Positions 1-5,353 of a DNA stretch of 5,353 nt are shown in pieces (positions within the stretch are counted from its first letter, which is position 1; each line of letters starts with the position of its first letter). Made by a program: the position numbers and the translations under genes. The stretch is from IMG/VR virus record IMGVR_UViG_2657245634_000006; one strand, written 5' to 3'. The DNA comes from a virus. Lineage: Duplodnaviria; Heunggongvirae; Uroviricota; Caudoviricetes. The notes under the pieces are model-generated. The model ran no database searches, had not been told where the DNA came from, and worked only from the letters and a program-made list of their open reading frames with translations.

Positions 1-1085
1 TTGAATCCGTTCTCGACCTGACCGGTAAACTGAATGAGGTTGAGTTCCGTGCAGAAGCCTCCACGTCCGTCATCCCAGCCACGAATAAATTCACCGCGTA
101 AATCAGGCAATTTATTTGTCGGATAAACCTTTGCCAGTTCCGGGTATTCTTCAGCAGAAAAAGCCGCACCGTTGCATTTCAGCCAGCCAGTAGGCGGTGT
201 GGCTGAAGGCCACGGAACAGGCACACCAACGGGTAATGCCGAACCTTCTCCCAAACCAAGGTATACGAGAAGACCGGCAACATCCTTTCCACTCAAATGA
301 GTCAGCGTATTGTCCAGCGGTTGTTTACCTGCCAGCGCATTGTTAATGGTGGTGCTGAATTTCGGGTCATTGTTAATGGCCGCGGCAATTTCTTTCAGTG
401 TGTCCAGTGTGGCTGGCGCACCGTTAATCAGAGCGGTAATAGCGGCCTGAACAAACTCAGTGGTCGCAATCCGCGTGGTGTTATTTCCTGCGGCAGGCGT
501 CGGCGCTTTTGGTTCTCCGGTAAATGTCGGATTATGTTTCTGTGCATACTGGGTATGAGGATCCTGTGCGGCAATGTGGTTTCTCATCTGGTCATCCACA
601 TACAGCCTTAATTCCAGGACTTCATCATCCACGTATTTACGGGTCGCCAGTACCACCGACGGGTCGATTTTCAGCGTAATAGCTTCGGTATTCGTGACAA
701 CCAGAATCATGCGGATAGTCTGGGTACGACCACTGCCTTCCTGCAACTGCGGTTTGTACGTTTCCGGGCAGTTCGCCACCGCAATGAGTACGCCTTCTTC
801 ATCATAAAGCCCAATCTCACGGATCCAGAATCCGCCCTCGTTCTCAGGGATGATTTGCTCCGCAATAATCTGGCTCTGGTTGTTCGGGTCAACACTCAGA
901 AGATTCAGCGGCGCAATGCGTTTCTGGTTAATCAGTTTTGTCTGTGCCGGGTCTGGTGTCGGCAAGACACCATTCGCATCACCAACGGCCATTTGCGTCA
1001 GATTCAGCTTACTGCCGAGCATCGTCGCGTTAGCCAGCCGTGCTGCGCCCTGATTAGTCAGAATGGCGTAGTATTTCACTGTCAT
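1..1085 (-). CDS. H: Tail fiber protein, P2 gpH-like; N-terminal 361 codons, 3' end beyond window start
   Basis: Absent from the ORF track because no stop codon falls in the window. I translated the minus strand by hand in the frame set by ATG at 1085..1083; no TAA/TAG/TGA occurs down to position 3. The ATG overlaps the stop of gene I (ATGA at 1082-1085). Translation reads MTVKYYAILTNQGAARLANATMLGSKLNLTQMAVGDANGVLPTPD..., continues through NPTFTGEPKAPTPAAGNNTTRIATTEFVQAAITALINGAPATLDTLKEIAAAINNDPKF (tail-fiber repeat-like) and ends in-window with WPSATPPTGWLKCNGAAFSAEEYPELAKVYPTNKLPDLRGEFIRGWDDGRGG (tail-collar-like). Position after gene I and the family assignment rest on remembered P2 gene order and tail fiber architecture. 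Confidence 0.8.
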   Translation of the reverse strand, partial: MTVKYYAILTNQGAARLANATMLGSKLNLTQMAVGDANGVLPTPDPAQTKLINQKRIAPLNLLSVDPNNQSQIIAEQIIPENEGGFWIREIGLYDEEGVLIAVANCPETYKPQLQEGSGRTQTIRMILVVTNTEAITLKIDPSVVLATRKYVDDEVLELRLYVDDQMRNHIAAQDPHTQYAQKHNPTFTGEPKAPTPAAGNNTTRIATTEFVQAAITALINGAPATLDTLKEIAAAINNDPKFSTTINNALAGKQPLDNTLTHLSGKDVAGLLVYLGLGEGSALPVGVPVPWPSATPPTGWLKCNGAAFSAEEYPELAKVYPTNKLPDLRGEFIRGWDDGRGGFCTELNLIQFTGQVENGF

Positions 1086-1693
1086 GCGTTTACTCTCAGG
1101 TTATCAATTAAATGAATGGCCGAGGCCGGGAAATAATCCCCTCCGACAATAATGGCCTCCGGGGTGTAGGGATAAACCGTCAGGGCGTCGCCGTGATAGC
1201 ATCCCGCACCGGCAAAAATGTTGCCGGTTGTACTTAAACTGATAGCCAGTCCCGTCAGATGGCGGCTTGCCGGTTTTGCATCAGCAACGAGGCGCTCCAG
1301 CTCCTGATACATTTCCTCGGTAATACCCTGCTCAAGCACGCCAACAACGATGCGGAACGTCCCCGGCTCCTCGTTGAGCTGCCACCACTCCCTCACCTCA
1401 ATCAGATAGCCGAGCGGCTCCACCACACGCCGGATTGCGCCTATAGTGCCCTTATGGCAGTGAATGAAATACGCATCGCGGATAACAGCGCGTTTTGTCG
1501 CTTCCGGCCACTTATCATCCCAGCGGTCAACCGAAAATGACCACGCCAGCCACGGCAGCAGATTTGCCGGGCAGGTGTCCGGGTTCCACAGCTCACGAAT
1601 ACTGACCGGCGTTTTTTCAATTTCCGCACAGGCTTTTGCGGCGGCAACTTCAAGCGGTGATGAGCCGGTCGGCAGCAGTCGCGAATCACTCAT
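1082..1693 (-). CDS. I: Baseplate/tail protein I, P2 gpI-like
   Basis: ORF-track ORF of 203 aa starting MSDSRLLPTGSSPLEVAAAKACAEIEKTPVSIRELWNPD..., which I recognise as the P2 gpI family. ATG at 1693..1691 overlaps the stop of J by 8 nt (ATGAGTGA). It sits between J and H as in P2. Confidence 0.88.
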   Translation of the reverse strand: MSDSRLLPTGSSPLEVAAAKACAEIEKTPVSIRELWNPDTCPANLLPWLAWSFSVDRWDDKWPEATKRAVIRDAYFIHCHKGTIGAIRRVVEPLGYLIEVREWWQLNEEPGTFRIVVGVLEQGITEEMYQELERLVADAKPASRHLTGLAISLSTTGNIFAGAGCYHGDALTVYPYTPEAIIVGGDYFPASAIHLIDNLRVNA

Positions 1694-2594
1694 CCGAGCC
1701 TCCGGTCACGACGCGGTATTCGGTACAGAAAGACGCCTGCGTACTGTTGAGCACGATGTCGGCCAGTGGTGCAGCCAGTTCGACACGCTGCACACCTTCC
1801 ACATGCAAAGCGGCATAAATGGCAGACAGACGGATGTCGCGCCCCAGCCGGTGCTGTGCCGTGATGTACGCTTCCAGTTTTTTCACGGCGGCAGCGCGTA
1901 TGGGTTCGCTTTCGGGACCAGGGTAAAGGTAAAGCGTGGCGTTTATCTGGTATTCAACGATGGCGGCAGACTGCACGGTCACGCGGTCGGCCACCGGCCT
2001 GACGTCCTCGCCATTAAGGGCGTTACGCACCACAGCCAGCAGGTCTTCGGATGCGACACCGTTATTTTCACGTGACAGTACGGAGATGGTGACGCAGGCC
2101 GGAGACGGACTGGTGACAGAGATATCCGCGACACGCCCGTCGGCACTGCGACCATGATACTGATAGGCTCCCACCGACCCGGCGACGCTTAAACCTTCAA
2201 ACGCCTGCTGAATACGCAGACGATAATCGGTGTCAGACTCCATCACTGCCGGTGTCGGCGGGATGGTCGAATCATCTGCCGGGGTGATAGTCAGGCGCGT
2301 GGTGTTGTAATTGGCACCAATCACATCAAGGTCATTACCGGCAGCACAGGCCAGCATCACCGCCCGTGCGGCCTCATTCACACGCTGACGCCAGATAAGC
2401 TCACGATAAGCATTTTCCTCCAGCAGTTTGACGAGAGGCTCAGATTCCAGCGTCAGGGTACGGGCGACCGCCTCCTGCTGGTCTTCCGGGTAAAGGGAAA
2501 TCAGTGTCGCCTTGCGTTCGGCGAGAATGGTTTCAAAATCCAGCTCCTCGACCACATCCGGTGCGGGTAGCTGGTTCAGGTCGATAATCGGCAT
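1686..2594 (-). CDS. J: Baseplate assembly protein J, P2 gpJ-like
   Basis: 302 aa ORF starting MPIIDLNQLPAPDVVEELDFETILAERKATLISLYPEDQQEAVARTLTLESEPLVKLLEENAYRELIWRQR..., recognised as baseplate J family. ATG at 2594..2592 lies 4 nt downstream of the W stop codon (2599-2601 on plus). Synteny W-J-I. Confidence 0.9.
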   Translation of the reverse strand: MPIIDLNQLPAPDVVEELDFETILAERKATLISLYPEDQQEAVARTLTLESEPLVKLLEENAYRELIWRQRVNEAARAVMLACAAGNDLDVIGANYNTTRLTITPADDSTIPPTPAVMESDTDYRLRIQQAFEGLSVAGSVGAYQYHGRSADGRVADISVTSPSPACVTISVLSRENNGVASEDLLAVVRNALNGEDVRPVADRVTVQSAAIVEYQINATLYLYPGPESEPIRAAAVKKLEAYITAQHRLGRDIRLSAIYAALHVEGVQRVELAAPLADIVLNSTQASFCTEYRVVTGGSDE

Positions 2595-2598
2595 GGTT

Positions 2599-2946
2599 TC
2601 AACTCACAGGGATGGTTAACGAAAGTGGCTGGCCGGTGTCGTTGTGCTGGCCGGTTAACGTGACCGTCATTCGCCCGTCAAAACTGCGCTCAGTGGTGAC
2701 GGATGACAGGGTGACGCGGGGTTCCCATTTCAGCACCGCCATGTAACAGGCGACCTTAATCTGCAACTCAAGCGCCGGGGTCTGCGGCTGGTCAATCATT
2801 GATGCCAGCAACGAGCCGTAATCACGACGCATCACCCGTGAGCCGACCGGCGTGCGCAGGATATCGCCGATACTCTGGCTGATATGCTCAAGGTCAGTGA
2901 CAGTCAGGCCATCACTGCGATTCATTCCGAGATAACGCGCAGTCAT
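2599..2946 (-). CDS. W: Baseplate assembly protein W, P2 gpW-like (T4 gp25 family)
   Basis: 115 aa ORF starting MTARYLGMNRSDGLTVTDLEHISQSIGDILRTPVGSRVMRRDYGSLLASMID..., recognised as the GPW/gp25 baseplate wedge family. ATG at 2946..2944 overlaps the V stop (ATGA at 2943-2946). Confidence 0.9.
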   Translation of the reverse strand: MTARYLGMNRSDGLTVTDLEHISQSIGDILRTPVGSRVMRRDYGSLLASMIDQPQTPALELQIKVACYMAVLKWEPRVTLSSVTTERSFDGRMTVTLTGQHNDTGQPLSLTIPVS

Positions 2947-3578
2947 AGAGGTCCCCCGGTTGTGCCGCCGCTGTCGCCGGGGTGTTTATGGGTATGCAGT
3001 ACCTTACCGTTTGATGAGAGTTCACCGCCGGTGTGTTCAATGTTGCCGCGCATCGTCCCGCCCTTCTGCACTTCCAGCGTGCCGGTAGTCAGTTTGTTAG
3101 TGCAGACCACTTCCGGTGTGTCCAGGGTGACACGGGTTGACGCTTTCACCGTGACCACCGGTACCGTGGCAGTAACAGAATCAGAAGCCGTCACGCTGGC
3201 CGTTTTAATTCCGCTTACCGTGAGTGCACTGGTTTCGGGTTCATACTCAATCACCGCCCCGTCAGGGAAACGGATATGCAGGGCATCCGCCGACACAGAC
3301 GGCGAGGGGTTATCGCCGGAATAAATCCCCGGCAGAACGAACGCCGTGTCGAGTTCACCGCCCACGGCCAGAATCAGCACCTGCTCCCCCACGGAAGGTG
3401 CCCACCATGTGCGCGAACGACCGGCACGATGGGTCAGCCACTGAAGCCAGTCAGTGCACATGCCGCCGGTCTGCACACGGCAGCGACCGGCGTTAAGGTC
3501 GGTTTCGACGACTAGGCCGGTACGAATCATGTTGCGCAGTGCGCGCGCGAGTTCCTGAATATTTGCGAGAGTGTTCAT
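2943..3578 (-). CDS. V: Baseplate spike / assembly protein V, P2 gpV-like
   Basis: The ORF track gives 2943..3596 with a TTG start (plus 3594-3596 is caa). I place the start at the in-frame ATG at 3578..3576, giving 211 aa beginning MNTLANIQELARALRNMIRTGLVVETDLNAGRCRVQTGG..., which matches my memory of the P2 gpV N-terminus. No obvious Shine-Dalgarno precedes either start, so the start is not fully certain. Confidence 0.87.
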   Translation of the reverse strand: MNTLANIQELARALRNMIRTGLVVETDLNAGRCRVQTGGMCTDWLQWLTHRAGRSRTWWAPSVGEQVLILAVGGELDTAFVLPGIYSGDNPSPSVSADALHIRFPDGAVIEYEPETSALTVSGIKTASVTASDSVTATVPVVTVKASTRVTLDTPEVVCTNKLTTGTLEVQKGGTMRGNIEHTGGELSSNGKVLHTHKHPGDSGGTTGGPL

Positions 3579-3661
3579 GCATGTGAGATTGCACAATATA
3601 TAAAAGTTATGCTATCTGGATTCATTTGTAGAACTACCAGACAACATTCAAGGAGAGCGTA
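3579..3661. promoter_or_regulatory. Divergent intergenic control region between V (minus) and cargo ORF (plus); putative promoters, positions uncertain
   Basis: 83-bp AT-rich spacer. Plus strand has TATATATAAAAG (3597-3608) as a possible -10 for the cargo gene, with a weak -35 (TTCATG 3574-3579 or TTGCAC 3589-3594). On the minus strand TATATT (3600..3595) is a possible -10 for V, with no good -35. The dyad TTGTAGAACTACCAGACAA (3626-3644) has TGT-N11-ACA outer halves resembling the P2 late-promoter activator element (consensus TGT-N12-ACA). All are visual matches only. Confidence 0.3.
3650..3655 (+). promoter_or_regulatory. Shine-Dalgarno sequence (AAGGAG) of the cargo ORF
   Basis: AAGGAG with a 6-nt spacer to ATG at 3662, read directly from the sequence. 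Confidence 0.6.
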
Positions 3662-4447
3662 ATGGTCAGCTATAATGTGACTAATGTGTGGGGGCTAATC
3701 GTTTTTTTCCTTTGTAGCTTTGCAGTATTAGCATTTTTTAGCTTTGGTAAAAGTAACCTTATGAGGCTTATTGCACATTATTTCAATTTTGGATATTCAG
3801 ACAAAAAATTAAAAAGACTTGACCGCGAGTGGCGCGACATTCAACTATTTAAAATAATTAACGGAATCAATGTATCAGGCATTGAAAATGTGAGAATGAT
3901 ACAGCAGGGACTGATTGATGGAAAACTAAAAACATCGTATTTTTTCCTTACTCGCATCTGGGGTGACATAACAAAACCACCACACATAATTAAAACAATA
4001 ATTGTAATTCTGGCCAGTATTTTTTACATTCTTCTCGCATGTTACATACACAACGAACAATCCGTTATAGTAAGGGATGCCATAGGCATACCATATAAAA
4101 ACATGATGTACTATGTTTATAGTGACAAAGTTCTTTTATCCTTCAAAAATAAAGCAGTTGAATTTAATAAAACTTATAGCCTTGCCGATTGCAAGAGACT
4201 GCAAAACGTATTTATAAAAGACACACTTCCTGAGATCGCCTGCAATAAGCTCTTACAGCTAAACGAGGAGGACTCCGAATGGTTAAGTCAGGAGATTAAA
4301 GATAATAACAGTCACAAAAAAGCATTATTAATACTATCCCTCGTCTATTTCACTTCAGGTCTGGTTATATTCCTGTCATATACAAAATTCTTTTACGCCA
4401 ATAAGAAGGTTTTAGAATACAAAGCATCAAATAAAAATCACTCATAA
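3662..4447 (+). CDS. Hypothetical integral membrane protein with three predicted TM helices; AT-rich accessory (moron) gene at the S/V junction
   Basis: 261 aa ORF on the strand opposite to all tail genes. AAGGAG at 3650-3655 lies 6 nt upstream of ATG 3662. TAA stop at 4445-4447 is followed by a hairpin. Hydrophobic stretches at aa 9-28 (VWGLIVFFLCSFAVLAFFSF), aa 109-129 (IIKTIIVILASIFYILLACYI) and aa 221-240 (ALLILSLVYFTSGLVIFLSY). Codon usage is strongly A/T-biased, unlike the flanking genes. I recognise no catalytic or nucleotide-binding motif. Confidence 0.8.
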   Translation: MVSYNVTNVWGLIVFFLCSFAVLAFFSFGKSNLMRLIAHYFNFGYSDKKLKRLDREWRDIQLFKIINGINVSGIENVRMIQQGLIDGKLKTSYFFLTRIWGDITKPPHIIKTIIVILASIFYILLACYIHNEQSVIVRDAIGIPYKNMMYYVYSDKVLLSFKNKAVEFNKTYSLADCKRLQNVFIKDTLPEIACNKLLQLNEEDSEWLSQEIKDNNSHKKALLILSLVYFTSGLVIFLSYTKFFYANKKVLEYKASNKNHS

Positions 4448-4452
4448 ACCTC

Positions 4453-4489
4453 TAAACATTGAGCGACCAGCATGGCCGCTCAATGTTTA
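4453..4489. terminator. Candidate bidirectional intrinsic terminator hairpin between convergent cargo ORF and gene S
   Basis: Read directly: AAACATTGAGCG (4454-4465) and CGCTCAATGTTT (4477-4488) are perfect reverse complements, with 4453 T and 4489 A extending the stem to 13 bp. The 11-nt loop ACCAGCATGGC can pair further (CCA/TGG). It is followed on plus by TTTAATT and on minus by a T-rich but interrupted tract. It lies 5 nt after the cargo TAA stop and about 30 nt after the S stop. Confidence 0.5.
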
Positions 4490-4518
4490 ATTGCGCATCA
4501 GCCTCTGACTGGATAAAA

Positions 4519-4971
4519 CTAACGCTCAAGGTGAGCCAGGATAATCTCTTCAATCATCTGCACATCCTCACAGGTAAAGCCGAGCAGAGGACGCGCCGGA
4601 TAATCAATTTTCTTACCGTCTTTCCGGGTTTCTTCCGACAGACCGAACTGATGCACGCTGGCGATTTTCGGTGACTTCCCGCCGTAAAACTCCATTGATG
4701 CCTGTTCCGGGCTGGCGCGGATATGCAAAAAACGACTGGTGATAAGTTTCGCAAACATTTTTCGCTTAACACGACCAGTCTTTTTTCTGGCGCTCTGCTG
4801 CTGGCGTGGCGCGTAGGGTGTGCCGTCCGGGGCTTTCTGAGCCATCACCCGACGTTGCTGACTCTGCCGCAGACGTTTCGCCAGTTCGGCGCTCAGTCGC
4901 CGACGCCCTGACGGTGACAGCGATTCAGTCAGTCCGGTCAGCCGGTCTTCAAAACGCTTAAACTCATTCAT
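4519..4971 (-). CDS. S: Tail completion protein S, P2 gpS-like
   Basis: 150 aa ORF starting MNEFKRFEDRLTGLTESLSPSGRRRLSAELAKRLRQSQQRRVMAQKAPDGTPYAPRQQQSARKK..., recognised as the P2 gpS family. ATG at 4971..4969 overlaps the R stop by 8 nt (ATGAATGA). TAG stop at 4521..4519. Confidence 0.9.
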   Translation of the reverse strand: MNEFKRFEDRLTGLTESLSPSGRRRLSAELAKRLRQSQQRRVMAQKAPDGTPYAPRQQQSARKKTGRVKRKMFAKLITSRFLHIRASPEQASMEFYGGKSPKIASVHQFGLSEETRKDGKKIDYPARPLLGFTCEDVQMIEEIILAHLER

Positions 4972-5353
4972 CCCACTTGCTCACCAGTTCGCCATTGATA
5001 TAAAGCTCCACCGGGCGGGTGACCGGCTCCGGCGGCGTGGGTTCCGGGATATTCTTCACATGCAGCGCACCGTCAACCTCACTGACCAGCGTGCGCTCGG
5101 TCAGCATCAGGCTGATGCTGATATCAAAGCTGCTGTCATTGTTGATGTCTGCATAAAACGTGAAGCCCTTTTTCTGGCCTTCGTCGGTGGTCATGATGTC
5201 GGGCTGATTTTCCCGCAGCCACGCCAGCACCGGCACGATGAGCAGGTCAAAATCACCGGTAAAGTCGGTCACAATGACATTGAGCGTGTAACGCTTTTCA
5301 AATGACAGCGACGCCGCCAGTGTGGAGGCAATACTCCCGTTATCCACGAATAT
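4964..5353 (-). CDS. R: Tail completion protein R, P2 gpR-like; C-terminal part, 5' end probably beyond window end
   Basis: The ORF track gives 4964..5347 from a GTG (plus 5345-5347 is cac), but the frame stays open through the last two in-window codons (5348-5353). The protein (...VDNGSIASTLAASLSFEKRYTLNVIVTDFTGDFDLLIVPVLAWLRENQPDIMTTDEGQKKGFTFYADINND...) matches my memory of P2 gpR, which I recall as longer than 127 aa. TGA stop at 4966..4964. Confidence 0.8.
   Translation of the reverse strand: MFVDNGSIASTLAASLSFEKRYTLNVIVTDFTGDFDLLIVPVLAWLRENQPDIMTTDEGQKKGFTFYADINNDSSFDISISLMLTERTLVSEVDGALHVKNIPEPTPPEPVTRPVELYINGELVSKWDE

Follow-up and report, generated by a model that had tools for sequence, protein, structure and literature searches.

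What transcribes the baseplate gene V in this 5,353-nt stretch of tailed-phage DNA (the window), and does the control of V reach into the divergent gene beside it? The start codon of V lies at 3578..3576 on the minus strand and that of the neighbouring cargo gene at 3662 on the plus strand, leaving an 83-bp gap between them (3579-3661). The initial annotation had placed in this gap an activator-dependent late promoter for V, with a dyad of TGT-N11-ACA spacing at 3626-3644 and a minus-strand -10 hexamer, TATATT, at 3600..3595; the gap, both motifs and the dyad spacing are all found where it put them. We conclude that 3579-3661 very probably holds PV, a late promoter of phage P2, along with the 5' end of orf30, the gene that diverges from V. 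This promoter is already known: it is annotated in the P2 reference genome, as are the activator site and the transcription start that belong to it, and the start is credited to work from 1985, so that the identification by itself has little significance beyond tidying the record. Our placement of the start and of the binding site follows the GenBank annotation of P2 and secondary citations. Set against that annotation, the earlier reading of the promoter was right about the activator site, but not about the -10, the start or the distance between site and start.

The window is the reverse complement of the R-S-orf30-V-W-J-I-H region of P2, from a P2-like phage or prophage. On its ORF map, an AT-rich plus-strand ORF (3662-4447) separates five minus-strand genes, complete or partial, from two others on the minus strand. 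A megablast search of 3200-3700 against phage genomes returned P2 itself (97.4% identity, full query), and the matched part of P2 is annotated with "V: gpV", with "orf30", and with the activator binding site of pV and the V-operon transcription start. Positions 1263-5353 of the window are colinear with P2 (AF063097) at 96.4% identity. By feature, identity is 100% for the gap, 99.5% for orf30, 95.4% for V (DNA) and 96.2% for S; orf30 and both gaps flanking it are 98.6-100% identical to P2, and the neighbours V and S 95-96%. The interval 3560-3680, which holds the gap, is 100% identical to P2 10206-10326, and through this alignment a window position equals 13886 minus the P2 position. Compared with PV of P2 (AF063097/NC_001895, 10239-10308), the whole promoter and the starts of both flanking genes, orf30 and V, are the same, with zero differences in the promoter itself. 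The surrounding phage is nonetheless a relative of P2 rather than P2, as the figures for V and S and a non-colinear tail-fibre end indicate. That end (window 1-1262, the H part and much of I) fits the usual mosaicism of tail-fibre genes. Gene V (2943..3578, minus strand), which encodes the baseplate central spike, is the first gene of the VWJIHG operon, and its product matches the gpV crystal structure, PDB 3qr8 'Baseplate assembly protein V', over residues 1-211 of 211 (E 2e-135). A search of Rfam gave zero matches anywhere in the window.

In the P2 record, a misc_feature at 10239..10266 is labelled "activator binding site; activation of pV promoter" (AF063097). This Ogr/delta site of PV corresponds to 3647..3620 of the window (minus strand; ATGTTGTCTGGTAGTTCTACAAATGAAT in the V sense), and the dyad TTGTAGAACTACCAGACAA (3626-3644, minus strand; TTGT-N11-ACAA) lies inside it. 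The dyad is the sole TTGT-N11-ACAA in the window, where 0.09 would be expected by chance, and at least one such match occurred in 17 of 200 shuffles. The pattern alone is only weakly above chance and too weak to carry the claim by itself. We judge the dyad to be real because the DNA around it is 100% identical to the annotated pV activator site of P2, not on the strength of these statistics. The proposal of a separate, activator-dependent late promoter for the V operon in the gap is supported on the same footing, the promoter being annotated in P2 and its activator dependence coming from the literature: PP, PO, PV and PF all have TGT-N12-ACA and all are Ogr-dependent (PMC3931495).

The two halves of the site differ in constancy. 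Promoter comparison identifies the distal half-site, TTGT (3644..3641, minus strand; TGT at 3643..3641), as the conserved anchor, and the proximal half-site, ACAA (3629..3626, minus strand), is one base out of the TGT-N12-ACA register. Read in the register of the other late promoters, PV has TGT-N12-CAA, whereas the corresponding triplet is CCA in P2 PO and PF and in 186 pJ, and so imperfect there too; the spacer of PV is unrelated to theirs. The proximal half-site also varies by lineage, with the nearest ACA at N10, N11 or N12. From these comparisons, the symmetry of TTGT and ACAA in P2 PV may be in part fortuitous, TTGT being the constant feature.

The initial annotation had suggested scoring the site against a weight matrix of known late promoters. 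We did this with a 25-column matrix built from six non-V late promoters (P2 PO and PF, 186 pV and pJ, P4 Psid and PLL), a small set whose members are homologous pairs rather than independent sequences, so that its spacer columns are weighted too heavily. The PV site scored -5.3 and ranked 70th among 10,658 window positions, and 200 of 200 shuffles reached the same score; the matrix gave no confirmation from sequence alone. This result weakens detection by sequence alone, but not the identity to P2 PV, which is a divergent member of the class.

We compared the DNA upstream of V in 80 gpV-encoding IMG/VR loci, in phage 186, in three more distant members of the Peduoviridae and in Erwinia phage ENT90. 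Among the IMG/VR loci, the 100 nt upstream of V sort into several types that are unrelated in sequence: type A, which lacks cargo; the orf30 type of P2, in three alleles; and two types that carry other cargo genes. In type A the stop codon of S adjoins TTGT, and the S-V interval is 66 nt in 55 of the 80 loci. TTGT starts 66 nt before the V ATG in P2, in types A, C and D and upstream of 186 orf32, and 65 nt before it in MHG101, FSL SP-004 and YenM_56.17. It is followed 53 nt later by CAnnCT, in the form CAATCT in P2, CATCCT in type A, MHG101 and FSL SP-004, CATTCT in 186 and CATGCT in YenM_56.17. Relative to the V ATG, TTGT lies at -66 or -65 in all eight V-promoter lineages, and CAnnCT lies at either -13 or -12. 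The promoters of P2 and type A agree at 19 of 66 positions, clustered at TTGT, at AT.GC (positions 29-33) and at CA..CT (53-58), and their GC contents are 0.33 for the P2 type versus 0.61 for the cargo-less type. PV shares its skeleton, TTGT-N49-CAnnCT-N6/7-ATG without a Shine-Dalgarno sequence, with the V promoters of P2-like phages that lack cargo and with the one that precedes orf32 in 186. For locating activator-dependent late promoters in P2-like prophages, this skeleton is a better guide than a good -10.

The cargo-less type differs from the P2 type in having a GC-rich hairpin in the spacer, which the P2 type lacks. The hairpin, GCCGCCGG-TATGAC-CCGGCGGC, lies between the -35 region and the -10 (approximately 2467-2488 in locus L004, and in other type A loci), and the type D promoter retains it at the same offset with paired changes, GCTGCTGG...CCAGCGGC (loci L038 and L044). 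It may be the terminator of the O operon, lodged within the V promoter; the P2 type has a separate one at 4453-4489. In ENT90 (L088), the sequence preceding the annotated V start (position 1492) did not show the TTGT-anchored geometry; its nearest TGT stands 2 nt farther away from the ATG than that of the other phages, and either the annotated start or the type of promoter may differ in this phage.

The P2 record puts the transcription start of the V operon at 10308, the first base of the V coding sequence, which is position 3578 of the window (minus strand) and the A of the V start codon. We aligned 13 late promoters at TTGT, using the first T of this distal half-site. From TTGT to the annotated start there are 66 nt in P2 PV, 65 nt in PO, 66-68 nt in PF and 67 nt in 186 pJ, and the centre of the 18-bp element falls at -56.5 in PV, -55.5 in PO and approximately -57.5 in PF. 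The initial annotation had described the activator site as closer to the promoter than the canonical position; measured from 3578 it is not, its centre at about -56.5 resembling that of PO, PF and 186 pJ. The distance from TTGT to the -10 is 53 nt in PV, PO, 186 pJ and all promoters of V homologues, and 54 nt in PF. From its position alone, conserved across these promoters, we infer that the -10 of PV is CAATCT (3586..3591, minus strand; -13 to -8), which begins 53 nt after the first T of TTGT. This hexamer matches TATAAT at just two of six positions. The hexamers upstream of the annotated starts of PP (TAGCCT), PO (GAAACT), PV, PF (GAAAAT) and 186 pJ (GACAAT) have in common an A at position 2 and a T at position 6.

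The -35 region of PV contains the block ATAGC (3611..3615, minus strand; -37 to -33), which emerged from the TTGT-anchored comparison as one of the few stretches alike in P2 and cargo-less promoters. Its counterparts are AATAGCC in P2 PF and 186 pJ, GATGGC in PO and ATTGC in the cargo-less V promoters, and the region, TAGCAT, is a poor match to TTGACA. A consensus scan of both strands of the gap turned up no sigma-70 promoter matching at 9 or more of 12 positions. PV has the traits of a late promoter: a partial dyad upstream, centred at -56.5, no recognisable -35 with a weak -10, and a fixed spacing from site to start. P2 PF and PO and 186 pJ and pV are like it in having the distal TTGT anchor with the start 65-68 nt downstream, a weak -10 with the same A2 and T6, the lack of a -35 consensus and, near -35, a block resembling A(A/T)(A/T)GC.

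The best-looking -10 at PV is a misleading one. TATATT is the best match to TATAAT on the minus strand of the gap (five of six positions), and if it were the -10, transcription would start near 3588, V would have a 10-nt leader, and the activator site would be centred near -47, closer than in the other promoters. A shift of 10 bp would leave the activator on the same helix face, and P4 PLL has AATATT at the same offset from TTGT. We nevertheless consider this arrangement very unlikely. The annotated start of the V operon is 3578 and not near 3588, and it places TATATT at -22 to -17, in the promoter spacer. TATATT is also confined to the orf30-type promoter: types A, C and D, 186, MHG101 and YenM_56.17 have no counterpart and no -10-like hexamer at its offset, although CAnnCT is present in all of them at offset 53. 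A 10-nt leader, moreover, would hold no Shine-Dalgarno sequence.

With CAATCT as the -10, PV would be laid out on the minus strand as a TTGT-anchored activator site (3647..3620), a poor -35 region (ATAGCA) and a weak -10. A small zinc-finger late activator (Ogr, and also P4 delta or 186 B) would bind the upstream site, and transcription would then proceed from the A of the V ATG, giving a leaderless VWJIHG mRNA. Late activators of this kind act by contacting the alpha subunit of RNA polymerase.

The V mRNA is leaderless because its annotated start is the first base of the V coding sequence. PMC4633059, citing Christie & Calendar 1985, names P2 as one source of the leaderless genes that have been investigated in E. 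coli, which also argues against a 10-nt leader. No Shine-Dalgarno sequence precedes V in any of the eight V-promoter lineages. The fixed spacing of TTGT and CAnnCT relative to the ATG fits the pattern expected of a promoter tied to a start no more than 1 nt from the ATG. In this respect the PV mRNA would be unlike those of O (40-nt leader) and FI (approximately 25-nt leader), both of which have ribosome binding sites. The classic leaderless phage mRNA, that of cI from lambda PRM, resembles it in starting at the A of the AUG from an activator-dependent promoter; PRM differs in its activator and promoter class and serves repressor maintenance, whereas PV serves a late structural operon. We considered an in-frame upstream TTG start for V at 3596 and rejected it: the other lineages do not conserve it, and the structure of full-length gpV begins at MNTL. 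An out-of-frame ATG (3582..3580, minus strand) lies 4 nt upstream of the V ATG, in the sequence ATGCATG; the annotated start is downstream of it, and the B' allele has ACG in its place, so it is not conserved.

On the other side of the gap lies the cargo gene, orf30 (3662..4447, plus strand), which is divergent from V, AT-rich (GC content 0.32-0.37), encodes a product of 261 aa and is described in P2 as 'Orf30; nonessential'. The protein has no Pfam or PADLOC match and belongs to PHROG 2407, a family without known function. The literature names orf30 solely as a variable, horizontally acquired locus of unknown function, and it is absent from two papers on the defence hotspots of P2. Between the convergent genes S and orf30 is a hairpin terminator (4453..4489; P2 feature 9397..9433), the O-operon terminator of P2, with a folding energy of -21.3 kcal/mol (z-score -5.7).

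Cargo-less relatives are homologous to the window up to exactly 3578 on one side and the S stop codon on the other, so the variable unit is 3579-4518, a low-GC cassette of 940 nt that runs from the S stop codon to the V ATG and comprises the terminator, orf30 and an AT-rich version of PV. At its V end the cassette is bounded by the A of the ATG, where transcription also starts, and so it carries its own version of PV. A leaderless V mRNA means that the cargo and the entire promoter can be exchanged as one piece, one of the junctions falling exactly at +1. That the S-V cargo cassette ends exactly at the start of a leaderless gene helps to define the limits of this cargo site in P2-like prophages. 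The orf30-type junction was present in approximately 463 of 5,426 complete E. coli genomes, and approximately 1,000 more had V with a different upstream sequence. Two other cargo genes occur at the S-V site, encoding a 508-aa protein (L032, 892-2418) and a 251-aa protein (L038, 1668-2423). Both run in the direction of V and the late genes and stop approximately 12-17 nt short of TTGT; only orf30 is divergent.

Alleles of the orf30 type differ mainly within the gene and little within the gap. Between the window and the most divergent alleles (L089 and L090), orf30 differs by 8-9% overall and by 20-21% in its first 150 nt (3662-3811), and the Orf30 proteins differ by 15% overall; judged from these sequences, the N-terminal part of Orf30 is evolving fast. 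V differs by 3.6-3.9%, and the gap at 4 of 83 positions (4.8%). Those four positions are one in the Shine-Dalgarno sequence of orf30 (AAGGAG at 3650..3655, plus strand; GAGGAG in the B' allele), two in the dyad spacer (positions 4 and 9, one of them with three alleles) and position -3. The half-sites and promoter positions 10-62 are invariant among these alleles. An inner inverted repeat within the dyad, GTAG/CTAC, noticed by eye, was discounted, since an A-to-C change at position 9 disrupts it in the B' allele and it is not centred on the same point as the outer dyad.

Could the late activator also control orf30? The dyad was said to sit only a few nucleotides upstream of the cargo Shine-Dalgarno sequence, and this is so, AAGGAG lying 5 nt beyond it; the activator site ends between 3 nt (annotated edge, 3647) and 6 nt (dyad edge, 3644) before that sequence. 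With so short a distance, the site must lie either in the leader of orf30 or in its core promoter. The transcription start of orf30 must be at or before approximately 3648, and its promoter must therefore overlap PV or sit inside V. The premise that both promoters must fit in 83 bp does not hold, as the cargo promoter could sit inside V. If instead the orf30 promoter overlaps PV, Ogr and RNA polymerase loaded on PV late in infection would shut off a gene otherwise expressed in the lysogen. We regard this as a doubtful prospect. P2 is not known to be inducible by UV, and its late expression would come from infection by P2, superinfection by P4 or ogr supplied on a plasmid. In its favour, the activator site abuts the Shine-Dalgarno sequence within the 83-bp gap, and any start at or before approximately 3648 would set the orf30 promoter on top of PV elements or send its transcript through them. 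Weak plus-strand candidates do lie directly on the PV core (TTGCGA at 3563, N16, TGtGAGATT at 3585-3590; and TATGCT at 3608-3613), although these are guesses, and on the plus strand of the gap every sigma-70 candidate for orf30 falls short of 9 of 12 matches. We found no expression data for orf30 in the literature. On its own, Ogr has only a weak hold on DNA and would make an unlikely roadblock; transcription in the divergent direction can inhibit an adjacent promoter but can also, by negative supercoiling, stimulate it. Since the other cargo genes found here point the same way as V, divergent coupling is not general to the site. A block at 3582-3634 is invariant in all alleles, a conservation that the comparison cannot assign to the signals of either strand. 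Taken more broadly, it is possible but improbable that the two promoters overlap within approximately 70 bp and are mutually exclusive, either with orf30 off when PV is loaded late or with orf30 transcription silencing PV in the lysogen.

Far less probable still is a bidirectional activator site that would also drive a late plus-strand transcript into orf30. P2 PP and PO offer a precedent, one site serving both divergent promoters at -55/-56 from each start, and the plus strand has a perfect TATAAT at 3671-3676, approximately 38 bp from the centre of the dyad. A start placed symmetrically, approximately 56 nt from the centre, would fall near 3691, however, and one set by TATAAT near 3683. Both are inside the orf30 coding sequence, downstream of its ATG and Shine-Dalgarno sequence, and would yield an mRNA without the start codon. 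The TATAAT is itself coding (Ser-Tyr-Asn) and is GATAAT in the B' allele. It lies at codons 4-5 of orf30 and is a rough mirror image of the minus-strand TATATT at 3600..3595.
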